The notes under the pieces: generated by a model
The model's database searches: none
What the model was told of the DNA's origin: nothing
The model's input: the letters and a program-made list of their open reading frames with translations, nothing else
Program-made: the position numbers and the translations under genes
DNA from: a virus
Length of the DNA: 64,000 bases
Virus record (IMG/VR): IMGVR_UViG_3300017593_000402
Span: 1-64,000 of that record
Reading direction: 5' to 3' (one strand)
Shown here: in pieces, positions 2,616-62,976 of the stretch
Numbering within the stretch: the first letter of the stretch is position 1
Layout of the letters: each line of letters begins with the position of its first letter

Positions 2616-3380
2616 ATGGAATGGACGATTTGTGAACGGCCTGCGGAAGTTTATGATATTGAACCAACGCAAAGAAGTGCTGTTGTGTTATCTTCTGGCG
2701 GCCTTGATTCTTCGAGTTTAATCTCGATGTTACTCAACCTAGGTTGGGACCTTACTTTGATTCACTTTGATTATGGTTCTACTCATCATGAAGCTGAATA
2801 TCACGCCTTCCTCCGGTTGGTTGAGCATTTTGGAATTGAGAAAGAGAGGGTTTATGTAGTTGATCTTTCGTCTCTGAAGCGATTGGTTTCTAAAGGAGTT
2901 GCGTTATTAGACGATCAAGTAGATGTACCAGAAGGGTACTATACCGAAGAAAGTATGCGTCAGACTGTAGTTCCTGGAAGGAATACGGTAATGATCTCCT
3001 ACGGACTCGCCCTTGCGGAGTCCTTAGGGAAGAAGTTCGTTGCTATCGCAGCTCATGAAGGTGACCATTTTATTTATCCTGATTGCAGAATTGACTACCT
3101 GAGGTATATGTCACAAACAATTTTTCTTGCTTCTGATAGGAAGGTAAAGTTATTAGCTCCTTTTGCCCATCTTGCGAAATGGGAAGTTGTTTCTGTCGGG
3201 AATAGATTTAATTGTCCGTTTGAGTTAACGTGGTCCTGTTATAAAGGGGAGCCACCAAAACATTGTGGCACCTGCGGTACTTGTGTTGAACGTGCTGAAG
3301 CTTTTCAGAAAGCAGGAGTTGAGGATCCTACTATCTACGATAAAGATCCTTGCTCTTTTCTTCGGAACAAGGAGGATTGA
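2616..3380 (+). CDS. queC: 7-cyano-7-deazaguanine (preQ0) synthase
   Basis: SGGLDS PP-loop, VPGRN, YPDCR, TWSCY, HCGTCGTCVER zinc site. Confidence 0.95.
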   Translation: MEWTICERPAEVYDIEPTQRSAVVLSSGGLDSSSLISMLLNLGWDLTLIHFDYGSTHHEAEYHAFLRLVEHFGIEKERVYVVDLSSLKRLVSKGVALLDDQVDVPEGYYTEESMRQTVVPGRNTVMISYGLALAESLGKKFVAIAAHEGDHFIYPDCRIDYLRYMSQTIFLASDRKVKLLAPFAHLAKWEVVSVGNRFNCPFELTWSCYKGEPPKHCGTCGTCVERAEAFQKAGVEDPTIYDKDPCSFLRNKED

Positions 3381-3382
3381 GG

Positions 3383-3544
3383 ATGATTGAGGTTCTTAAA
3401 CTAAAGCGTAAGGACAAACCTTGTGAGGTACCCGGTATGTTCGATTCTGTGTTAACGTTAGTTGTTAAGGGAAGTCGTTTTGAGGTATTGTGTTTAGAGA
3501 GAGCGATTTTTAAAGCACTACAAAAGTTAACCAAGAAGGTTTAA
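3383..3544 (+). CDS. Small hypothetical protein
   Basis: ATG 3383 with GGAGG upstream; fills the gap in the operon. Confidence 0.5.
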   Translation: MIEVLKLKRKDKPCEVPGMFDSVLTLVVKGSRFEVLCLERAIFKALQKLTKKV

Positions 3545-3563
3545 TTTTACCTAGGAGGCTCCC

Positions 3564-3830
3564 ATGCAAATTACAGTTTGTGATGTTTGCGGTACGCAAA
3601 AGGACGTGCAACGAGTTAGTTTTTCATATGACCGCCGTGCCGATGCTGCTGGATCCGTGGAAGATGTATATGAAACTTTTGATTTGTGTTGTAAATGTTA
3701 CCTGAAAGCTTTGAAAGCCGCCGTTAAGGAGGAGATCAGAAGGAAGCACCTTAACGAGTACTTGTTCAATAAGAATTTGATTGAGATCATTAGGATTCGA
3801 CAGGAAACTTCAGCTAAGAAATGGGAATAG
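3564..3830 (+). CDS. Zinc-binding hypothetical protein
   Basis: CDVC...CCKC; AGGAGG RBS. Confidence 0.7.
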   Translation: MQITVCDVCGTQKDVQRVSFSYDRRADAAGSVEDVYETFDLCCKCYLKALKAAVKEEIRRKHLNEYLFNKNLIEIIRIRQETSAKKWE

Positions 3831-3839
3831 GAGGTACAC

Positions 3840-4061
3840 ATGGCATTATTGGAGAATGTTCGTCATCCTAAACACTACACTCGTGGTAAGATTGAGGTAA
3901 TTGATTTTATTGAAGATCAAGGATTTGATTTCCTTGAGGGGAATGTAGTAAAATATCTTGCTAGGTATAAATGGAAAGGTGCTCCTTTAGAGGACCTAAA
4001 AAAGGCAGAGTTCTACCTTGAGCGCTTGATTAAGCGGGAAGAAGCGCGTCGTAGAGGTTGA
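3840..4061 (+). CDS. DUF3310 / T7 gp1.7-like nucleotide kinase family protein
   Basis: HPKHY...IEVIDFI...GNVVKYLARY..K...EDLKKAEFYL signature. Confidence 0.85.
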   Translation: MALLENVRHPKHYTRGKIEVIDFIEDQGFDFLEGNVVKYLARYKWKGAPLEDLKKAEFYLERLIKREEARRRG

Positions 4062-53200: not shown

Positions 53201-53629
53201 ATGATTTATTTGCACGAAGTTCAGTCGGATTTGAGTAGTAAGATTGAGTCCGTTTTGACGGATTTGGATCAAACGTATAATTTGGGGTTGATTAGAGCTC
53301 CGGTGATAGTTTCCTCCTTACCAGAGGATCGCGTTACTCCTTCTACTTACTTGAAAATGGAAGAGGTTTCAAGTCAAGAGAAGGTTTTCTTTCGGTGTAC
53401 TGGAACGTTACTCGTTGAGTTATCTTTTGAGATAGGTGAAGATGTGGCTTCGAGCCTGATCCGGAAGTTAGGTAATAAGTTGCAAGATCAATTGGAGCGA
53501 AGAAATAATACTACCCATACCTACTATTCAGGTAGTGTTAAAAGAGTCACGTGGTCTCTTCCTAAGGAAGAGATGGTTAGAACAATTAAAGTTGAGTTCG
53601 AGGTACAAGGCATTGAGCAACCAATCTAG
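53201..53629 (+). CDS. Putative tail terminator
   Basis: 142 aa between gp10-like and tail tube genes. Confidence 0.5.
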   Translation: MIYLHEVQSDLSSKIESVLTDLDQTYNLGLIRAPVIVSSLPEDRVTPSTYLKMEEVSSQEKVFFRCTGTLLVELSFEIGEDVASSLIRKLGNKLQDQLERRNNTTHTYYSGSVKRVTWSLPKEEMVRTIKVEFEVQGIEQPI

Positions 53630-53849
53630 TGCTTGGAAGTGCTCAAGTTGTGGGGCCGTCCTAGGTTACCTGGATGGTACAGACATCTTGCGTATCAAGT
53701 ATAAGGACTTATACTTTTACGTAAATGTTATAAGAGGAGCTTCGTTGATAAAGTGTTTGTGTCGTAAGTGTGGTAAAGTTAATGAAGTTATGGCGAAAGC
53801 GATGAAGATGAGTGAACCTGCTGTGATCGAACTGGAGAAGTACTTGTAG
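53613..53849 (+). CDS. Mu Com-like zinc-ribbon protein
   Basis: WKCSSCGAVLG...IKCLCRKCGKVNEV; TTG start with GAGGT RBS. Confidence 0.55.
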   Translation: MSNQSSAWKCSSCGAVLGYLDGTDILRIKYKDLYFYVNVIRGASLIKCLCRKCGKVNEVMAKAMKMSEPAVIELEKYL

Positions 53850-53900
53850 TGAGTTAGGTTGTTGAGGTACACACTTAATTTGAGGAGGTGAGAATTGTAA

Positions 53901-53945
53901 ATGAACACACCAACTTATAACACCAAAAGATTGAGTTTCGGGCCT
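53901..53945 (+). CDS. Major tail tube protein, exon 1 (MNTPTYNTKRLSFGP)
   Basis: Strong GAGGAGGTG RBS; unspliced frame stops two codons later; joins exon 2 in frame. Confidence 0.8.
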
Positions 53946-55134
53946 AAGTGACACTGGGCCCGTAAAACCTCTGCTGATCAACGGGGAAACACAATGGTAT
54001 CCACTCAGCTAAATGAGATTTTAGATGGATTAATTTTCAGTGATGGGCATATTGCTTATTGTAAGGCTGGTGACTATAGGTTCGAGTTGGGGACGACCAA
54101 GCGTTTGTACGCAGAGCAAGTTTGTAACCTTCTTCGTCCTGTTATTTCCTGTTCTATTAGAGAACAAGTACGTATTGGATTTGGGAAGAAATTTATCTCT
54201 TACAGAGTTGTTGGATATAAAGCTCCTGTTATGAAGAATCTTCACTATCGTTGGTATGATGATAAAAAGAAAAAGCTTCCCAAAGATTTTAGATGGACGC
54301 CTACTACTTTGAACGTTGCTTATTGTGGTGATGGTACTGTTATTGAGAATAGCCCGACTATGTGCTTAAATAGTTGGGCGGTTCCCGAGGTGAAAGAGAT
54401 AGTTAGGTGCTTTGAAGAGTTGGGCTTGTATGGGACGGTTGTCCAAACCCCAACAGGACCGATTTTTAGGTTACATCAAGATTGTGCCCTAGATTTCTTC
54501 GAGTACATAGGAGACCCACTAATTCCGTTTCACTCTTATAAGTGGATTACCGTTGTCAACCCCCAGCAAGCAGTTCGCGCGACTCTGTGGGACGATGACC
54601 TAGCTCAAAAGGTTGCGAGGTGTATTAAGAAGATTATGATTTTACGCGTTTGGGGAGGTTCGAAGGAACGGCGGTACTTGTCGTACTTTCCTGAGTTAGT
54701 CGTAATGGTTAATGATAAAGACGTTAAAGATGCCCTTCAGAGAATCAGAACTTCAAGGAAGAAAGGTGAGGTTGTAGTTAGAGGTCGACAAGCGAAACGT
54801 GTTTTAGAAAGGGTCCATTTGTTTCTTCCGGACGATAAACGAATGTTAGCTACAATTGCGTTAGCTTTGCCTCTTGGGCGGAGGAAGAAAGATTTGAAGG
54901 AAGTTCTATATCAGTTTTTCTGGACGAAATTTAATGAATTAAATCCGCCCGAGAGAAGACGGGGACCCAAAAGAGAGTTGAATAGCGAACTGCGGCTGCA
55001 GAGACTGAGCGTAGAGGACACTAACCTCTTTCAGGATCTGGTTAGTGTATACGACAGTCCGACCCCTACGGTGACGTAGGGAAGTAGTTGTACTACTTGC
55101 CCGAAAGGGTCAAGAAAAATAACAGGTTAAAGCG
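53946..55134 (+). mobile_element. Group I self-splicing intron (1189 nt)
   Basis: P1 with U53945-G53956 wobble; P3, P5, P6a, P7, P8 and P9 (GTGA tetraloop) pairings; terminal G55134; P10 with exon 2. Confidence 0.88.
53994..55079 (+). CDS. Intron-encoded LAGLIDADG homing endonuclease/maturase
   Basis: ILDGLIFSDGHI and VAYCGDGT motifs; lies entirely within the intron. Confidence 0.8.
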   Translation: MVSTQLNEILDGLIFSDGHIAYCKAGDYRFELGTTKRLYAEQVCNLLRPVISCSIREQVRIGFGKKFISYRVVGYKAPVMKNLHYRWYDDKKKKLPKDFRWTPTTLNVAYCGDGTVIENSPTMCLNSWAVPEVKEIVRCFEELGLYGTVVQTPTGPIFRLHQDCALDFFEYIGDPLIPFHSYKWITVVNPQQAVRATLWDDDLAQKVARCIKKIMILRVWGGSKERRYLSYFPELVVMVNDKDVKDALQRIRTSRKKGEVVVRGRQAKRVLERVHLFLPDDKRMLATIALALPLGRRKKDLKEVLYQFFWTKFNELNPPERRRGPKRELNSELRLQRLSVEDTNLFQDLVSVYDSPTPTVT

Positions 55135-55638
55135 GGTGTGCTTTATATTGGAAGCGCCGGCCAAACACCTACTATTGATATAGGCGCTGTTAAGACTGGA
55201 GCAACTCTAACATTTACTCGAGATAAACTCGAGGTTAAACAGGGTTCTCCCGAGAAGTTGATCAAACAGTGGGTTGTTACTGAGACAGTTAAACTAGATG
55301 TTGTTGGTCATGAATGGAATCTTGAGAATTTGAGGTATGCTATTGGTTGTGGTATCATTCAAACTTCGGGAAATGAGAAGACGATGGATTTCGGCGGAGA
55401 TATGGAAGTTACTGAAGCGTCGCTGAAGTTCGTTCACCAGATGCCTGCTGGAGGAACTGTGGAAATTGATATTTGGAGAGCTCAGTCCGCAGGAGAACTC
55501 TCGATCGAGTTTGGGAACGATCCACACGAATTCCCTTACTCGTTCGTTGCTCTGGATGCCGATACTGCTTGGGATGGCACTACCTTGGATGAGAGGGGAA
55601 GGTTGTGCCGAATTAGGTTAATCGGTGACTTCTCCTAA
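55135..55638 (+). CDS. Major tail tube protein, exon 2 (spliced product 182 aa)
   Basis: GVLYIGSAGQTPTIDIGAVKTGA...; precedes chaperones and tape measure; no RBS before GTG 55138. Confidence 0.8.
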   Translation, partial: GVLYIGSAGQTPTIDIGAVKTGATLTFTRDKLEVKQGSPEKLIKQWVVTETVKLDVVGHEWNLENLRYAIGCGIIQTSGNEKTMDFGGDMEVTEASLKFVHQMPAGGTVEIDIWRAQSAGELSIEFGNDPHEFPYSFVALDADTAWDGTTLDERGRLCRIRLIGDFS

Positions 55639-55691
55639 TTTTAGGTTAACTTAGTTAGTACAATTTAGACGCCCCAGGAGGTGCATTTATT

Positions 55692-56090
55692 ATGAAAGCT
55701 TTTGAAGAGTACATTGAAGGAGCTCGTGAAGTTACCTTAAGCAATGGGAACACGGTTGAGATTCCTCCGCTTACTTGGGGGAAGGAACTTAGGCTCTACA
55801 ACATTCTAACTAAGGTCTTTTCTAAGCTTTCCGTTAGTACTGATGCAGAAGGCAATCCTCAGTTCGATGAGTCCCAAGTCTACGCGTTCATGACCGCCTT
55901 TGCTAATGACGTGTCTGAGATTGCATCGATTATTTTCAACAAAGACAAGAAGTGGGTTGAAAATAATCTGACCTCAAAGGATATGGTAGAGTTTATCGTC
56001 CCTTTGTCGCTTCACATTTTCGGAAAGCTAAATCTCGGACTAACCAACGCGGTAACGAAGTTGGCAGAAGAGGCGGGGGAGACCCCATAG
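55692..56090 (+). CDS. Tail assembly chaperone (G-like)
   Basis: Between tail tube and tape measure; AGGAGGTG RBS; slippery site near its end. Confidence 0.75.
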   Translation: MKAFEEYIEGAREVTLSNGNTVEIPPLTWGKELRLYNILTKVFSKLSVSTDAEGNPQFDESQVYAFMTAFANDVSEIASIIFNKDKKWVENNLTSKDMVEFIVPLSLHIFGKLNLGLTNAVTKLAEEAGETP

Positions 56091-56353
56091 AGAAGACCAT
56101 AGCGCAGGTAGTCGACTTCTTGTGCTCTCAGTATGGATGGACTCCTGACCAGGTTTTCGCCTTGACAAGGCCCACGATTGAGGGTTTACTAGAAGAAGCG
56201 AGAGAACGACTCCACGCTCAGTATCGTTTCTATGCTTCTCTAGTAGGCGCAGAACTTCGTGATGATTACGTTCGGCCAGATAGTGATGATCCACGTACCT
56301 TGTTGAAGAAAGTGCGAGATATTGGAGTCGATTTTGAGGTGGTTGGTGGGTAA
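56075..56353 (+). CDS. Tail assembly chaperone -1 frameshift extension (GT-like)
   Basis: G GGG GAG at 56075-56081; -1 frame is open (GDPIEKTIAQVVDFLCSQYGWTPDQVFALT...). Confidence 0.7.
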   Translation, partial: GGDPIEKTIAQVVDFLCSQYGWTPDQVFALTRPTIEGLLEEARERLHAQYRFYASLVGAELRDDYVRPDSDDPRTLLKKVRDIGVDFEVVGG

Positions 56354-56358
56354 AGAAT

Positions 56359-59300
56359 ATGGCCGAAGAGTATATAGTAGAAATAGGTGTTGAGAATAAG
56401 GAGGAGTTAGAAAAACTCCGTACCCAAGTCGCGAAAACCGCTGAGTCTGTCCAAACCCTTTCTGAAACTGTACGTAAGCTCGCTGAAAGTCAACGACAAT
56501 TAGTTGAGTCGATTCGTAATACCGCCCGGAGTACCCAAGCTTCTGTTAAGTCCACCCAAAGTGCTTCGAAGGCCACTTCACAGTACGCCTCCTCTGTTCT
56601 CACGTTAAGGACTGCGTTTATTGCTATTGCCTCTGCAGCTGGGTTGGTAACTGCAGCGATTAACTCTAAAAAGATCTCGATGAGCTTAGCGAATAAGTTG
56701 TACGTACTTTATACGCGCTCAGCCCAAAGCGCTGCTCGAGCAGTCACCTCATTTGCAGTACAGCATCGCTTCCTTGGTACCGTTTTGACGCAAACCGTTC
56801 ATATACTTTCCACTACAACTTCTGCTTGGATTACTTGGGCAAAAGGATCAATCCCTGCTACTGCCGCAATGAAACAGTCTTTAAATTCTGTGCGAGATGC
56901 GCTCAGAGTGTTGTTCACCGAGTTTCGCAGGGGACCTTTTACTTGGATAGCTTCTCAGTTTACGCACGTTGCAGAAGTTGGTAAGTCTGCGTTCGTTTCT
57001 ATTGCTGTTTATGCTGTAAGGGCAGCTACTAGGTTAGTTGAGTTCTTGACTCCTGCTGTTGCTACGGTAACGCGCTTGTTTTTGAAGTTGAGCGATTCTC
57101 TTACTCCAGTAAGGGAAGCTCTTTCTCGTCTGTTTGTTAGACTGAGAATTCCAGACGCCTTTACTAAGCTAACCGAAGTTTTTACCAGGCTTAAAGTGAT
57201 AATCGTTGATGTCGCGGATGTTATCTCTACTAAGTTTGTGTCTGGACTTCGTGTCGTAGCCGACCTCTGGAAAGGCTTACTCCGACTTGCTTATTCCCTA
57301 CGTGATCGTGTAGCCCAGATCGGGAGTGTGGTGAAGTCTAAGTTAGCCGGCAAGATAGGACTGACCGCTAGTTTTGCGTTTTTAGGTACTGTATTGGATA
57401 AGGTGCGAGACAAGATCTTGCAGCTCGGGGCTCGTATTAACGAATCCCTAGGTGGTGAGGCCGTTTCTATAGGCGCGAAGTTATCTAAACCTTTTGTGGC
57501 GATGATGGGGAGTTTGACCATTCTTTCCGGGAAACTGTTGCGTTTCTTTCCCTTGACTAAGAAGTTAGGCTCTACACTAACTACGTTGGGGTACTCCCTC
57601 GCTTCTGTGTCCTCGTTTTCGCGGTCGTGGTCTATGGTAATGTCCCATTTGGATAAGACATTACCTGGAGTCAACGACCGATTACGCAGAGTTACTCGCG
57701 GTTTCTCAGAGTTGACCGGTAAGATTAACATACAAACGGCCGCGCTTCCTAGATTGATCAAGGCACTTGGGGAAGTCACCTTTCACTACCTTATGATATT
57801 CAAGTTTAATGTTAGTCTAGCTCACGGATTCGAGCTCTTGGGTGAGAAGCTCTCTTACTTTGGTGAAGCCATGCTCGAGCACTTCTCCGAATCGTATAGA
57901 GTCAGTTCTGAGATGATTCGCACGCAGGTTGATTTGAACCGAGCGGTTCGGAGGTATGCTGAGTTGACCGGCGATGCTTCTATGAGTGCAAAAGATTGGC
58001 TCCAGTGGTCCGACAGACTTGCTCTTTCTGCAGGTAAAAACGTTTCAGAGATGCGCCGGGTTACCGGTGCTCTGTTGGATTTTGCGGCTTTGTATAAGTT
58101 GAACCAAAAGGAGACGAAGCGATTCATTTCTTTGATGACAGACGTTTCGAGTTTCTTGGGCAAAGATGTGTTCGAGACCTTGCAACATGTCCACGGTGCG
58201 TTGGCTGGGTTAACTAATTCAGCCATGATTTTGGGCATTAACATAGACCACCTCAGAGAGAAGACTAAGTTTTACGAAGAACAACTCCGGAAAGAAGGCA
58301 CCGAAACTGGAAAGTCCGTCAAACAAAAAGCGAGGATGCTCGCTCTTATACAGGAGTTGAGTTACTTACAGGGTGTTAACAATAGGTTGATGGAAACAGG
58401 GTATGGTATTCTGAGACGTTATCGCGTTTCTCAAGAACTTCTCGCGGCCCAAACTGGAAATTATGTAACTCCTATTTTGAATGCTTATTACAAAATTTTG
58501 ACCCGAATTAACGAGGTCATGGCTCAGCCCGGGATTGGAGGTTTTATCACTACGATGAAGGCCGCTGGTGCCGCCTCACTTGATTTGCTAGGACGTTTTG
58601 TAAAACTCGGAGCGCAGTTGTTTGTATTGATTGAGACTGTACATTTAGTTGAAAAGGCGTTAACAGCACTAAACGCAGCCTTTGACGTCTTTGGGATGAC
58701 TCAGAGAACAGCTCTTGCTCCTCTATTCGTGATGAGAGATGGTATGGTCAAAACTAGTTTTACTGCCTCGTCACTAAGCAAAGTTCTCAAGAGGTTAAGC
58801 GTTTACATTGGTACTACCTTTGTAAACTTCTTCAAAAACGGTGCCAAGGCTGTTAAAGGCCTTGTTGTAGAGTTAAGAACTGCGATCTCCACATTAATGG
58901 CGACTAAAGTTCCCAAGGCCATTTTTGGCCCAGCTCTAGCATCTGCTATGGTTCCAGAAAGGGGTGTGATTAGGAAAGCTCTGGCTGCTAGTAAGTTGAT
59001 GCAAGCGACTTTTATGGCCGAAGGGTTGGTGCTGGCGAAGAAGGTAACTCCTATGGTACAGAAGCACGCTAAACAGGTTCGAGATTTGTACTTAATTACT
59101 CATGACGTCGCCGGAGCTCAACGGGAGTGGGCTAATACCATAATTACGTTTACTGGGGCGGCCGGGGGTTTGTCTAAAGTATGGTACACTTTCTTAGGTG
59201 TCGTTACAAAAGTTAAAGGTGCCGTGTTAAAACTCATTAACATATTCAAAGGCTTTGCCAAGATTTTTGGGATTATTTTGATCGTCATTCCCGCGGTGTA

Positions 59301-62300
59301 TAAAGCCTTCAAAGAAGCGCTTATCCCGGCTTTTAAGGAAACTTTTGGGGAGTCCGAAACTTTTCGGGCCGCGGTTTCTGCACTAGGGAAAGTTTTGGGT
59401 TGGTTAGGAAAAATCATTGTACAGATTGTTACTGGCCCCGTTAAGCTGTTTGCGACGGGAATCGCTGGGACTGCAGGTGTTATTTCGTATGCACTGGGAT
59501 TGATTATTAAGTACAGGGGCGTTCTTCTCCGCTTAACAGGACCTTTCTATTTACTCGGGAAGTCCGTCTTTAATGTGGGGAAGTGGTTCGGTATTTGGGG
59601 TAAGTCTGTTGACTCCTTGAACAAGAAACTTGACAGTGCTGGCGAGACTTTGATCAAGTTTGGAGAACGGTCTGCAGATAATGCTCGAGCTATAATTGGG
59701 CTGAACAAGGTACTACAGACTAACATCGATCGTACTGCGCGGTTGCGAAAGGAACTTGCTGAAGGAATGAAGAGACGACAAGAGGAACTGGGACTGAACC
59801 TTTCGTCTGCTAAGTCGTTGGAGCGAGTTGTTAACGCTATTCAGGAGTATCGAGATGCCTACCAAGAGTTCCTCGAAGTTCAAGATGAGATTGAGAAAGG
59901 TAGGACGACTGAGGGTAAGCAGTTAGAAGATGCAGAGGCTTTACATAGGAGAAGTACCGAAGCGGTTCAGGAGCTTTCGAAGGCGCGTTCCGCTCTTGCA
60001 GAGAATTTGAAGAAGCAGTTTGAAATTACAGGAGCCCAGATTAAGGAAACTAAAACGTTGGTAAGTTTGTACTCAAAGTACACTAAAGCTATTGGCGACG
60101 TTTCGACTGGACAAGTAGTTACTCTCAAAACTGGGCAAGCTATTTCACGGATTTGGCAAGGCTTAAATCAGATTACACAGGGAAACTTAAGTGGGATTAA
60201 GACAACCGCAGAAGCGTACAACTCGTTAGCAGGTATACTTCGTGATATGGCCTCTAAAGCTAGCCCTTCACTACGGGCCGCGTTGGTAGCAGAAGCTAAG
60301 TCTTATGAGAAGCAAGCTGGTATACTAACTAAGGTAATGGAGAGGACCAAAGGGAAGGTCAAAATTGATGAAAAATTAATCGAGACTTCCTTCAAAGTCT
60401 CCGCTGCCCAACGTGCTGTGAATGACGAATTACAAAGGCACCAAGCAATTTTGACTTACTTACATAAATCGATTTCCGATACAACTGAGGGACTGGGTCA
60501 GTTCGCGAATGTGTATTCTAAAGATGTAACAGTCTCGGCCGAAACTGCCGCCCGTGTACAGCTCGCTTTAGCGAAGATCTCCGAAGTAGGTGCTCGTCGC
60601 TACGAAGAAGCTATCAATGGTAATATAGACTCTCTTAAAGTGTACCGGAACTATCTTGAAACAATTCAGAAGTCCCAGAACGACGAATTTGCCACTCTTG
60701 TTAAGGACGCAAAGGGGAGACAGCTCCTGAATGCTTACTTGGAAGCACAGATTCGAACCGTTGATAACTTGATAAAGTCTTATGAGAGTGAGTCTCAAGT
60801 TCATGTAACTTTATCGGCTCGTATAAAAGCACGACTCGCTACTTTGAAGGCGCAGAATAAGGTAACAACGGAAACTCTGAAGCTTCGGAAACTTCTACTT
60901 GACCTTTGGAAGTCTGAGTTTAACCTCCATTCTCGGTTAAACGCCCTTACGTTACAGGGGTTGACTACAAGAGAAAAGAGAGCCCAAGCAGAACAGTATC
61001 TTAGCGAGGCTTTACAACAAAGTATCGAGCAGTATAGCAGAGCAGGACTTTCTCTCAAAGCCTTTGATGATTACGAGAAAGGGGCTATTTCAACTACTAC
61101 AGCCGTTAGACAGGCTCTGGTGCAATTACAAGGTCGTACCGACTTGTTAAGTAGGGCTATTAAGGAAACCCTCTTAGAAGCTCTGTCTCGTGCTACATCT
61201 CAACAGCGTGAGTATGCGGCTATGACGATCCAAAGTGCGAGGCGGATTAAAGAACTCGAGAAAGTAATTCACCCTGTTTATACTACTTTTGGGAATTACT
61301 CGAATCTGATCGCTGATTTGGTTAATCGTTCTCGTGACCTAGCAAAGCAGACAGGGATTTCGGCCCTCGCCTTTGATTCCTCTACGGTTACTGTGAGTGA
61401 ACTGGCTTCTTATCTCGCCCTTTTAAGCGCACATCAAGTTGATTACAACAATGTTTCAAAAGAGACCGCTCAAGAAGTTACCTCTCTAGTTGAGAAGTTA
61501 CTCGAGCTGACCAGAGTTGATGTCCCCCAATGGGGGTCAAGCTTAGCTAATGTATTTGAGAGCTTACAAGGGAAGACTAAGGATTTCATTTCAGCGAATG
61601 ATTACCTCAAACCCGCTCTCCTGAACGCTATCTTTGGATTTAGGGGGTTGGTTGACAGAGTCCGTGAGCTTGATGCTAACCTCGCTCCTGTTATACAAAG
61701 CGTGTTAGACAGCGCTTCGGCGATGTATGAAGCTAAGAGTTCTTCTTCGGCTTATAGTGAGGGGTTGAGTAAAATCACGAGTTTGGAAGAGCAAGTACGT
61801 ACCGCCCTTAGTAGCGTACTCCCTCATTTAAACGCGCAAGTTCAGGCTTTAGCTAAAGGGAAAGTGCAAACTGCTGACATGATCGCGAAGACTCAAGATT
61901 ATGCTAGGATCGTTTCAATACTGGTTTCCCAGTTAAACACATTGACTGATGCTGAGGAACGTTTGCGAGAAAGCCGCCGTAAGAATTTGGAGTTGAGTTC
62001 CTCTTTGGTATTTTCCACTCAGCAACTTCATGAGAATGTGTCCGAGCTCGCTAACATTGCTGTACAAGATCTGATTCAACAGTACCGACGAGCGGGTGTG
62101 GTACTGAGTGAATCGCAGAAACAAGCACTGGAGGACATAACAAGGACTATTACAGGTTACACAGAGTTAACTGAGTTGGCTCGTAGACGAGTTGATACTT
62201 TTACGAAGTTCGTGGACGCTAAGCTGGCCGAACAAACACGCGCTTGGTCGCGCAATAAGGATGAAGTTGAAGCTTTTGCTAATGGCTTGAGGACTATTGG

Positions 62301-62976
62301 CGAGAGTGCAATGCAAGGAATCTTGAAGAACTATGCTGAGATTGGGGCGAAGATCGAGGAAATGGGCGGGTTCTTTGGCGCCCTCGGACAAATGACTCAA
62401 GAGGCTGTTGCGAGGACCGCTGCGAGCGCGTTTGATGAGTTGAACAGGGCAATAATTGATTCTATAGTATACGGAAAGCGATTTCAGATGAACTGGCAGG
62501 AAATTTTGAGAAGCTTTACGGCAGGTCTTGCTCAGGCAATGCTACAGTTGTTAGAATTTAAACTAGCTATGATGGCGCTGCAGGCGATGGGAATTCGAGT
62601 TCCTATGATGAGACGTGGGGGTTTGGTTCCTTTAAGGAGGCAGGCCGGCGGCCCGGTACCTGGGCAAGGACGTGGAGATAGCGTCCCCGCTTTACTAGAA
62701 CCAGGAGAATATGTTGTTCCAAGGCCTGTGGTAGAAAAAATAGGAGTTTCGTTCTTTGACGCGCTACGTAAAGGTGTTGTACCTCCGACGATAACACCTT
62801 TTCATTACCAAGCGGGAGGCTTGGTTACGCCGATGCAACAACAAACGCAGGAACCGAAGGTAACGGTTGTGACTATTTTCGATGAGAAGGAGCTTAATAA
62901 GTATTATAGCTCTCCCACTTATGGCAGGGTTGTTGCGAACAATGTAGGTGAGAGAATCGCGAGGAGGACTAGCTAA
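56359..62976 (+). CDS. Tape measure protein
   Basis: 2205 aa, helical and Ala/Leu-rich; C-terminal GGPVPGQGRGDSVPALLEPGEYVV. Confidence 0.92.
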   Translation: MAEEYIVEIGVENKEELEKLRTQVAKTAESVQTLSETVRKLAESQRQLVESIRNTARSTQASVKSTQSASKATSQYASSVLTLRTAFIAIASAAGLVTAAINSKKISMSLANKLYVLYTRSAQSAARAVTSFAVQHRFLGTVLTQTVHILSTTTSAWITWAKGSIPATAAMKQSLNSVRDALRVLFTEFRRGPFTWIASQFTHVAEVGKSAFVSIAVYAVRAATRLVEFLTPAVATVTRLFLKLSDSLTPVREALSRLFVRLRIPDAFTKLTEVFTRLKVIIVDVADVISTKFVSGLRVVADLWKGLLRLAYSLRDRVAQIGSVVKSKLAGKIGLTASFAFLGTVLDKVRDKILQLGARINESLGGEAVSIGAKLSKPFVAMMGSLTILSGKLLRFFPLTKKLGSTLTTLGYSLASVSSFSRSWSMVMSHLDKTLPGVNDRLRRVTRGFSELTGKINIQTAALPRLIKALGEVTFHYLMIFKFNVSLAHGFELLGEKLSYFGEAMLEHFSESYRVSSEMIRTQVDLNRAVRRYAELTGDASMSAKDWLQWSDRLALSAGKNVSEMRRVTGALLDFAALYKLNQKETKRFISLMTDVSSFLGKDVFETLQHVHGALAGLTNSAMILGINIDHLREKTKFYEEQLRKEGTETGKSVKQKARMLALIQELSYLQGVNNRLMETGYGILRRYRVSQELLAAQTGNYVTPILNAYYKILTRINEVMAQPGIGGFITTMKAAGAASLDLLGRFVKLGAQLFVLIETVHLVEKALTALNAAFDVFGMTQRTALAPLFVMRDGMVKTSFTASSLSKVLKRLSVYIGTTFVNFFKNGAKAVKGLVVELRTAISTLMATKVPKAIFGPALASAMVPERGVIRKALAASKLMQATFMAEGLVLAKKVTPMVQKHAKQVRDLYLITHDVAGAQREWANTIITFTGAAGGLSKVWYTFLGVVTKVKGAVLKLINIFKGFAKIFGIILIVIPAVYKAFKEALIPAFKETFGESETFRAAVSALGKVLGWLGKIIVQIVTGPVKLFATGIAGTAGVISYALGLIIKYRGVLLRLTGPFYLLGKSVFNVGKWFGIWGKSVDSLNKKLDSAGETLIKFGERSADNARAIIGLNKVLQTNIDRTARLRKELAEGMKRRQEELGLNLSSAKSLERVVNAIQEYRDAYQEFLEVQDEIEKGRTTEGKQLEDAEALHRRSTEAVQELSKARSALAENLKKQFEITGAQIKETKTLVSLYSKYTKAIGDVSTGQVVTLKTGQAISRIWQGLNQITQGNLSGIKTTAEAYNSLAGILRDMASKASPSLRAALVAEAKSYEKQAGILTKVMERTKGKVKIDEKLIETSFKVSAAQRAVNDELQRHQAILTYLHKSISDTTEGLGQFANVYSKDVTVSAETAARVQLALAKISEVGARRYEEAINGNIDSLKVYRNYLETIQKSQNDEFATLVKDAKGRQLLNAYLEAQIRTVDNLIKSYESESQVHVTLSARIKARLATLKAQNKVTTETLKLRKLLLDLWKSEFNLHSRLNALTLQGLTTREKRAQAEQYLSEALQQSIEQYSRAGLSLKAFDDYEKGAISTTTAVRQALVQLQGRTDLLSRAIKETLLEALSRATSQQREYAAMTIQSARRIKELEKVIHPVYTTFGNYSNLIADLVNRSRDLAKQTGISALAFDSSTVTVSELASYLALLSAHQVDYNNVSKETAQEVTSLVEKLLELTRVDVPQWGSSLANVFESLQGKTKDFISANDYLKPALLNAIFGFRGLVDRVRELDANLAPVIQSVLDSASAMYEAKSSSSAYSEGLSKITSLEEQVRTALSSVLPHLNAQVQALAKGKVQTADMIAKTQDYARIVSILVSQLNTLTDAEERLRESRRKNLELSSSLVFSTQQLHENVSELANIAVQDLIQQYRRAGVVLSESQKQALEDITRTITGYTELTELARRRVDTFTKFVDAKLAEQTRAWSRNKDEVEAFANGLRTIGESAMQGILKNYAEIGAKIEEMGGFFGALGQMTQEAVARTAASAFDELNRAIIDSIVYGKRFQMNWQEILRSFTAGLAQAMLQLLEFKLAMMALQAMGIRVPMMRRGGLVPLRRQAGGPVPGQGRGDSVPALLEPGEYVVPRPVVEKIGVSFFDALRKGVVPPTITPFHYQAGGLVTPMQQQTQEPKVTVVTIFDEKELNKYYSSPTYGRVVANNVGERIARRTS

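Follow-up and report, generated by a model that had tools for sequence, protein, structure and literature searches.

The introns of Staphylococcus phage Twort, a myovirus, were reportedly shown to splice by Landthaler and Shub in 1999. Other familiar systems are the DNA polymerase gene introns of phages SPO1 and SP82, which bear HNH endonucleases (I-HmuI/II) and compete with each other, and the group I introns of organelles, in which LAGLIDADG open reading frames (ORFs) overlap the ribozyme core. Introns of virion genes are also in print. In one paper, Twort orf142, which contains three group I introns, is said to encode the tail-tube protein, and the question is raised why introns colonise mainly DNA-metabolism genes (PMC11878797). 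Another (PMC2504315) describes an intron in the tail-tube gene of Bacillus cereus-group prophages, as well as introns in tape-measure and terminase genes, with early intron stop codons that end translation in P1/P2; its match list names the major head protein of Tuc2009 and the tape-measure gene of JCL1032. PMC4599081 reports a terminase intron, and in PMC12880540 a total of 2513 group I introns is given for jumbo gut phages, where 136 of 139 curated genomes carry them (examples are in terL, nrdD and polymerase genes); nothing on virion genes was gained from PMC6669764, PMC10914365 and PMC11835236. Here, we analyse a DNA stretch of 64,000 nucleotides (nt), hereafter the window, which is the first 64 kb of the 137,043-bp IMG/VR virus record IMGVR_UViG_3300017593_000402, and in which the major tail gene of a siphovirus-type phage is interrupted by what is most probably a group I intron.

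We hold with high confidence that positions 53946-55134 of the window are a mobile group I intron in this gene, and that splicing would yield a product of 182 amino acids (aa). The interrupted gene is organised as follows:

53882..53888, plus strand: ribosome-binding site GAGGAGG, read directly, 12 nt upstream of the ATG at 53901
53901..53945, plus strand: exon 1, 15 codons, MNTPTYNTKRLSFGP, identical at 14 of 15 positions to residues 1-15 of the uninterrupted homologue P0003
53946..55134, plus strand: predicted group I intron, 1189 nt, from A53946 to the terminal G55134, placed by alignment with intron-less DNA and by P1/P10
53949..53951, plus strand: in-frame TGA in the P1 loop, which would halt ribosomes coming from exon 1
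53994..55079, plus strand: intron ORF, 361 aa, LAGLIDADG homing endonuclease (PF03161, phrog_11023)
54015..54467, plus strand: LAGLIDADG_2 domain, within loop L5 (six-frame search, 48 bits, E 1.1e-13)
54579..54962, plus strand: loop L6, with the C-terminal domain of the endonuclease, homologous to the stand-alone L6 ORF of the related locus L014
55135..55638, plus strand: exon 2, 167 codons plus TAA, GVLYIGSAGQTP...

Without splicing, the frame that opens at ATG 53901 behind this strong ribosome-binding site encodes only MNTPTYNTKRLSFGPK before a stop, while the 166-aa frame from GTG 55138 to 55638 is preceded by no GGAGG-like site, the nearest being an AGG about 12 nt upstream. Both points had been made in the original prediction, together with the proposal that joining U53945 to G55135 restores a 182-aa protein. 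Excision of 53946-55134 indeed joins CCT|GGT in frame (15 + 167 = 182 aa), and the product is collinear with the uninterrupted homologues. A search of 5.8 billion proteins returned six relatives, two of which (P0003 and P0005, 182 aa each) cover the query fully and read MN.P.Y.TKRLSFGPGVLYIG... without interruption, including the contiguous SFGP-G[IV]LY that had been expected of intron-less homologues. At the junction, uninterrupted homologues read ...KRLSFGPGVLYIG..., which matches the predicted join codon for codon. The same holds at the DNA level, as the intron-less DNA of loci L002, L003 and L004 aligns to the window through ...GGNCCT and resumes at GGNGT..., and tblastn places residues 1-15 at 53901-53945 and residues 16-182 from 55135 on. 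Only a cut at T53945|G55135 yields Pro-Gly-Val, which fixes the intron as 53946-55134. The motif SFGPG is kept in homologues down to 45% identity, and the junction-spanning tryptic peptide of the spliced product would be LSFGPGVLYIGSAGQTPTIDIGAVK. Finally, exon 1 differs from its counterpart in L002 by eight synonymous codons and one non-synonymous codon among 15; as the differences are mostly synonymous, this comparison indicates that exon 1 is still read as protein and is under selection.

Within the intron, window pairings were checked by script, and P4-P6 were placed by comparison with the related loci L014 and L050. The resulting ribozyme comprises:

53940-53946 / 53955-53961, plus strand: P1, 7 pairs, with the U53945.G53956 wobble at the splice site
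53951..53961, plus strand: internal guide sequence, ACACU (P10) then GGGCCC (P1)
53951-53955 / 55135-55139, plus strand: P10, ACACU with exon-2 GGUGU, 5 pairs
53968-53974 / 55011-55017, plus strand: P3, CCUCUGC / GUAGAGG, 7 pairs
53975..53990, plus strand: J3/4, P4 5' strand and J4/5, a family-conserved element, UGAUCAACGGGGAAAC, common to L014 and L050
53983-53986 / 54561-54564, plus strand: P4, GGGG / CCCC, 4 pairs
53997-54004 / 54542-54550, plus strand: P5, 5' strand GUAUCCAC, 8 pairs, one bulged U
54559..54578, plus strand: P4 3' strand, conserved AGCAAG and P6 5' strand, by homology with L014 and L050
54570-54578 / 54985-54993, plus strand: P6, GCAGUUCGC / GCGAACUGC, 9 perfect pairs, 3' strand just before R
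55000..55009, plus strand: R element AGAGACUGAG with the P7 5' strand
G55001 + 55003-55007 / 55055-55060, plus strand: P7, with a G55001-C55060 pair and A55002 bulged
55018-55026 / 55040-55048, plus strand: P8 hairpin, 9 pairs, 13-nt loop
55052..55060, plus strand: S element CGACAGUCC with the P7 3' strand
55064-55070 / 55075-55081, plus strand: P9, GUGA (GNRA) loop
55083-55088 / 55092-55097, plus strand: P9.1
55099-55102 / 55107-55110, plus strand: P9.2, GAAA loop
55120..55134, plus strand: 3' tail, with UAACA at 55120-55124 and the terminal G55134

All of the originally predicted P1, P10, P3, P7, P8, P9 and terminal G55134 were recovered at the same positions, and P4 is as imperfect as had been remarked. 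Its 5' strand GGGG lies 7 nt upstream of the endonuclease ATG. The placement of P4 to P6 draws on a 12-nt string, ACCCCCAGCAAG (54559-54570), which is identical in L014, where it precedes P6 (GGUGGACUU/AAGUCCACC at the equivalent place); the near-identical CCCUCAGCAAG replaces it in L050, and likewise in other family members. The two strands of P5 and of P6 are far apart in the window because coding sequence occupies both loops, and the P5 of L014 is a simple hairpin (AUCC-UUUU-GGAU) at the equivalent place. UAACA followed by a few bases and G also terminates the introns of L011, L014 and L050. The 3' 140 nt fold at -47.3 kcal/mol (z = -3.36; 0 of 200 shuffles as stable), and their minimum-energy fold gives P7, P8, P9, P9.1 and P9.2.

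Comparison with the homologous intron of L011 and L014 provides covariation, as P3, P6, P8, P9 and P9.1 stay paired there with sequences different from those of the window. P3 is CCCCUUC/GAAGGGG in both loci (two positions changed on both strands), P6 is changed along the whole helix, and in L014 P9 is CCCUCAA-GCAA-UUGAGGG and P9.1 is GGUAGC/GCUACC. The guide changes as well, from GGGCCC to GCUCCUGG, fitting a splice site 4-5 nt deeper in the gene. A MAFFT alignment of 3' cores was set aside, as it placed the P8 of L014 out of register and aligned exon sequence of L017-L019 to P9; covariation was therefore taken from explicit helix tables and from RNAalifold.

For the latter, we used a core pattern, AGAGACTGAG-N(25-55)-CGACAGTCC, which occurs in 108 viral-contig stretches in IMG/VR. 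Eighty of these stretches were fetched (L032-L111), and by eye most of them contain a P6 hairpin, AGCUGC, R, P3', a P8 hairpin, S, GAnC and a P9 hairpin, while L097 looks like a chance match. RNAalifold was run on 65 sequences (the window, L014 and 63 non-redundant loci, with L071, L097 and L101 left out) and gave 19 pairs, 12 of which show compensatory changes, in an alignment that is partly circular for the 19 pattern bases and not for the remainder. For the five P8 pairs, 16 to 35 of the 65 sequences are changed on both sides. R/P7 shows no variation, since the core pattern itself served to pick the sequences.

Family members are also scored by the Rfam covariance model RF00028, with full-length alignments for two members poor in ORFs, L081 (44.7 bits, E 3e-8) and L050 (27.8 bits, E 2.1e-5). 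L050 is ORF-less and shares the UGAU.AA.GGGGAA element and the ...CAGCAAG-P6-AGCUGC string of the window. Together with the uninterrupted homologues and the covariation in L011 and L014, these scores uphold the group I intron reading. For the window itself, the covariance-model check proposed with the original prediction was less favourable: RF00028 gives nothing at its gathering score, and what it does give is a weak, partial match on the 3' core, from 54960 to 55081, aligned to model positions 97-253 (P7, P3', P8, P7' and P9). Apparently the model covers such introns poorly, and we do not take its low score as evidence against this one. At gathering score RF00028 covers 0 of 20 family motif sites, yet it finds four other introns in those loci, and at E <= 0.01 it covers one of 13 (L081). 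A further RF00028 match, in the same record at 66190-66439 (minus strand, L030; 19 bits, E 9.9e-4), was rejected as it shows no group I features by eye; the surrounding 2 kb or so contain no long ORFs.

The identity of the host gene is suggested by its predicted structure. A model of P0003, built from a 14-sequence alignment, has a pLDDT of 81.5, and Foldseek returned 27 PDB matches at E <= 0.001, led by siphophage tail-tube proteins (best 9n71_A, E 1.1e-8) and with those of SPR, JBD30, YSD1 and Bxb1 among them; matches in BFVD are major tail proteins. According to this model, the gene product has a siphophage tail-tube fold, and these fold matches identify the split gene as the major tail (tail-tube) gene. 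The phrog_2175 profile is matched by the 166-aa frame only from position 25 onward, indicating that the start of the protein is missing from this frame. In the INPHARED phage collection, neither tblastn with exon 2 nor blastn with 53600-55700 gave a match.

Several observations weigh against an intact, textbook intron. RF00028 has no match in the 64-kb window at gathering score and none at E <= 10 on 53850-55250 (1401 nt), where Rfam as a whole gives five chance-level matches (the best being Bacilli-1 RNA over P9/P9.1, at 18.6 bits vs a gathering score of 55.6); the weak match at 54960-55081 appears when 181 nt are searched alone, and its 13.7 bits (E 0.21) compare with a gathering score of 50. 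P4 has only four pairs, nine additional bases separate P5' from P4', and coding inserts take up 537 nt in L5 and about 400 nt in L6, with an ORF that overlaps most of the core. Such inserts could hinder folding, and splicing may therefore be slow or rely on a helper protein. In L011 and L014, the frame requires either G-C instead of U.G at the 5' splice site or U as the last intron base, and not all family members are thus textbook. In addition, no RNA run with the window sequence is found among the six runs listed, and the in-frame GTG 55138 could in principle start an unspliced 166-aa protein. The weak P4, the long inserts and the missing gathering-level match would all suit a decayed intron that splices poorly, leaving the gene either broken or expressed from GTG 55138 as a tube protein without its first 16 residues. 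Gene callers do start the protein there (P0001 is the database call of this exon-2 frame), and the contig of L005 exists even though its interruption has lost 16 codons and the hand-derived splice is out of frame. We nevertheless consider decay improbable, since in exon 1 the ribosome-binding site and the ATG are still in place and the encoded peptide is conserved, most codon changes being synonymous, whereas GTG 55138 has no ribosome-binding site. Moreover, the intron has kept its P1, P10 and terminal G, all of which suit the exons as they now are, the endonuclease ORF is open over 361 aa, the window allele predominates in four runs from a single study, and the first strand of the predicted fold consists of residues 17-22.

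Because the endonuclease ORF accounts for 1086 of the 1189 inserted bases, one may also imagine a free-standing homing endonuclease gene that has split the tail-tube gene into two separately translated, assembling pieces, with no splicing involved. Genes split by intervening endonucleases exist in phages, as is known from the T4-like phage literature. Here, however, the N-terminal piece would be just 16 aa long and the second piece lacks a ribosome-binding site, while the insert has a full set of covarying group I helices, its ends obey the U / terminal-G rule, its guide pairs with both exons, and L014 carries a homologous insert without the LAGLIDADG domain. This makes a split gene even less probable than decay. 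As LAGLIDADG endonucleases are also found in inteins, we considered an intein as well as a group II intron, and we attach almost no weight to either: the insert runs into a stop after two codons and the frames of the two exons differ, which refutes an intein, and there is no reverse transcriptase and no Rfam group II match, while the ends (AAGUG...AGCG) differ from the group II consensus.

Under the preferred reading of a mobile, splicing group I intron, the late transcript would be made with the intron included, and ribosomes starting at ATG 53901 would halt at TGA 53949 in the P1 loop. The RNA would fold into a group I core consisting of P1, P10, the P3-P7-P8 pseudoknot, P4-P6 and P9 to P9.2. 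Free guanosine would attack after U53945, held in its U.G pair by the guide GGGCCC; the guide ACACU would align exon 2, and the exons would be joined after G55134 to give an mRNA encoding the 182-aa tube subunit. Production of this subunit would then depend on splicing. In analogy to the endonucleases of other introns, the 361-aa endonuclease may cut intron-less alleles around ...TTCGGNCCT|GGNGT..., with repair copying the intron in.

The endonuclease ORF matches PF03161 (LAGLIDADG_2) at 45.9 bits (cut-off 25, E 7.7e-12) and phrog_11023 at E 3.5e-20. Its frame passes through P5', P4', P6, P6', P7, P3', P8, P7' and half of P9, and its last 38 or so residues translate P6', P7, P3', P8, P7' and that half of P9. 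A homologue of 46% identity, P0008, retains NPQ(Q/E)AV, LQRLS and CDSP, which are the translations of P4'/P6, R and S, respectively; the overlap between ORF and ribozyme is thus conserved. For the C-terminal domain in L6, the model of the last 166 residues is confident for residues 1-128 and not for residues 129-166. The top PDB matches listed by Foldseek are nearly all single-domain LAGLIDADG enzymes (such as I-MsoI and I-CreI), and with a best E of 4.5e-3 and a TM of about 0.5 they weakly suggest a LAGLIDADG-like fold for the modelled domain. By eye, ...LIFSDGHI... and ...AYCGDGT... carry Asp, and the C-terminal LAGLIDADG-like helix ends in Lys. Pfam gives no match above cut-off for this domain, a ResT/TelK match at E 0.0069 being taken as chance. 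Relatives arrange these modules in other ways: the L014 intron, about 620 nt long, lacks the LAGLIDADG domain and encodes just the second domain in a stand-alone L6 ORF, and L011 has the L6 ORF plus a LAGLIDADG module in the P9.2 loop, in one 465-aa frame. No second LAGLIDADG_2 gene was found in the 137-kb record, and no homologue of the HNH protein of locus L010 in the phage's own genome.

Three scans with the tail-tube protein identified 24 distinct loci, which we classified by tblastn and by reading the DNA. Fifteen are uninterrupted (L020-L022, L024-L029, L006-L009, L015 and L016), including all distant loci, one (L012) is unclassifiable, as its contig begins at residue 34, and the remaining eight are interrupted, as follows:

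L011:1502-3002: window-type ribozyme, 4-5 nt downstream of the window's site
L014:1574-2203: window-type ribozyme placed as in L011; further intron after codon 27 (L014:2235-2883)
L013:2349-2997: only the intron after codon 27
L010:1-965: two introns separated by a 16-codon mini-exon, the first ORF-less and inside codon 11, the second an HNH-bearing copy after codon 27
L005:3299-4000 (= L023; second-family intron 3329-3993): fused intron, with its 5' end from the codon-11 intron and its 3' end from the codon-27 intron
L017:1-907, L018:1-120 and L019:700-1010: window-type ribozyme (same R/S, no P9) plus LAGLIDADG ORF

Two ribozyme families are thus found at five sites, all within the first 75 codons of the tail-tube gene. 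The window-type LAGLIDADG family occupies three of them and the HNH family two, and all insertion sites with a visible 5' exon lie after ...CCU or ...AGU. The fifth site is that of L017-L019, in which the intron ends 5 nt before ...EWNLDNL (around residue 75) and the 5' halves lie beyond the contigs; a search of the L017 endonuclease linker for P5'/P4'/P6 found only 6-nt complements. The introns of codons 11 and 27 form the second family, with RF00028 matches in L010 at 55.4 bits (E 8.4e-12) and 41 bits (E 1.8e-7). This family (L010, L013, L014 and L005) encodes an HNH_3 ORF between P7 and P7', and its guides fit the exons (GCCUGA/UCGGGC with P10 AGCUC/GAGCU; GCCUACA/UGUGGGC; CCCUAC/GUGGGG). 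The two introns of L010 are 48 nt apart, both after GCCU, and look like one intron of which a copy has reached another position matching its guide. In L005 the 16-codon mini-exon (SFGPGVLYIGSAGQTP) is lost and, as the hand-derived splice is out of frame, the tail-tube gene may be broken there or start at GTG 3992. In addition, a 278-aa JGI protein, P0009, starts with the tail-tube exon-1 peptide NVPSYDTSRISLGPS and continues with DPQQAV, LQRLS and CDSP, twice; judging from these motifs, it probably represents a further tail-tube gene, interrupted by tandem introns of the window's ribozyme family.

The samples themselves appear to contain more than one allele. DNA runs that contain the window sequence are labelled hydrothermal-vent metagenome, and contigs 99% identical to the window depart from it after 53926 into the 5' end of a codon-11 intron, rejoining at 55171 or 55174, after the 3' end of an HNH-type intron. 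This alternative allele occurs in runs X1 and X4, both of which also have the window form, and in X5. The Lys-Arg-Leu codons before the break show synonymous differences between the two forms. Given the 99% identity of these interrupted contigs, a single phage population has two intron alleles side by side within samples. No intron-skipping contig was found among the contigs of four DNA runs, where no near-identical intron-less allele was seen either.

Host genes of the wider family were taken from the fetched stretches as the longest stop-to-stop frame of at least 90 aa starting -20 to +250 nt from the S element, which gave 63 frames, or 54 after dropping duplicates of other loci; an earlier hand-picked set of 10 ORFs was biased and is excluded from the count. 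With PHROG families whose counts overlap, the 54 frames match major head proteins (phrog_267, nine; 1357, seven; 283, six; 9953, five; 14242, four; 1328, two), ribonucleotide reductase (phrog_367, four; 84, one; 3844, one; about five ORFs) and a major tail protein (phrog_807, one), as well as many endonuclease families, which are the introns' own ORFs. According to blastp clustering, at least 21 of the 54 downstream ORFs are major capsid proteins. In five of the nine hand-picked ORFs with a PHROG match, the profile match begins at position 4-42, so that the intron, like that of the window, interrupts the gene close to its 5' end. Tandem RF00028 matches were also noticed beside the family motif just upstream of capsid genes, at L072:2698-4096 (minus strand), L096:3632-4778 and L085:333-2159, with three RF00028 matches and the motif within 1.4 kb in L072; these look like capsid genes with several introns. 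We tentatively propose, on less than even confidence, that the window intron belongs to a large ribozyme family that is under-detected by standard screens, prefers the genes of the most abundant virion proteins, and spreads by guide-matched reverse splicing as well as homing, with introns competing for a single gene. In the literature outside subscription journals and supplements, we found no survey of a capsid-biased ribozyme family.

Around the intron, gene order is that of a tail module. A neck/tail-completion gene (phrog_5) and a weakly matched tail-terminator gene (PF20765, E 0.083) precede the split gene, which is followed by a tail chaperone (phrog_1442) and the tape measure. The tail should be very long, as the ORF at the tape-measure position (56359-62976) has 2205 aa. 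This ORF is preceded at 55692-56353 by two short ones, of 132 aa (the chaperone, phrog_1442) and 77 aa, which could be a chaperone pair. Upstream, a 104-aa ORF with two CxxC pairs (CSSCGA..., CRKCGK) at 53535-53849 (plus strand) overlaps the end of the putative tail-terminator gene; it has a weak phrog_5516 match and an 82-aa counterpart at the same place in L005. A promoter and terminator scan of 53400-55800 gave none meaningfully placed, with seven promoter-like hits (2.8 expected) and one terminator-like hit (2.2 expected).

For annotation, the consequence is that gene callers give a 166-aa protein from GTG, and forms of 156-157 aa in relatives (P0001, P0002, P0004), whereas the real tail-tube product is very likely 182 aa long. 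As the intron escapes Rfam at its default threshold, mis-calls of virion genes may be frequent in uncultured phages. For the phage, splicing late in infection would be required to make a subunit of which each virion, given the 2205-aa tape measure, presumably contains a great many copies. One short gene stretch thus combines five sites, two ribozyme families, two endonuclease families and co-existing alleles, with an endonuclease domain in different loops of one ribozyme and an intron that has given rise to a copy 48 nt away, and offers a compact natural system for intron movement, competition and decay. The known mechanism of group I introns is unchanged by these findings.

The original prediction implied that such a location is unusual. 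The intron does reside in a virion gene, but tail-tube introns are already in print (PMC11878797 and PMC2504315), and the location is less unusual than implied. Twort orf142 resembles the present case in having group I introns in a phage tail-tube gene, several of them per gene; here, in contrast, the gene encodes a siphovirus-type tube subunit with one intron in the window, and its relatives have two ribozyme families at five sites. The prophages of B. weihenstephanensis KBAB4 and B. cereus B4264, as described in the latter source, likewise combine a tail-tube group I intron with early intron stop codons, but they belong to a Firmicute host and their ribozyme is unrelated by sequence (no match in the phage collection by blastn or tblastn). 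The second family, with its HNH_3 ORF and its co-occurrence with the LAGLIDADG allele, resembles the competing intron alleles of SPO1 and SP82. As in organellar introns, the endonuclease frame runs through core helices (NPQQAV, LQRLS and DSP translate P4'/P6, R and S), but the phage ORF is not fused to the upstream exon, and its LAGLIDADG_2 domain lies in L5 while the domain with a LAGLIDADG-like fold lies in L6. The window intron is therefore an addition to the known tail-tube introns of Twort and of Bacillus cereus-group prophages, in an arrangement that is already known, and the part worth a further look is the combination of many sites, two families, co-existing alleles and a capsid-leaning family under-detected by Rfam.

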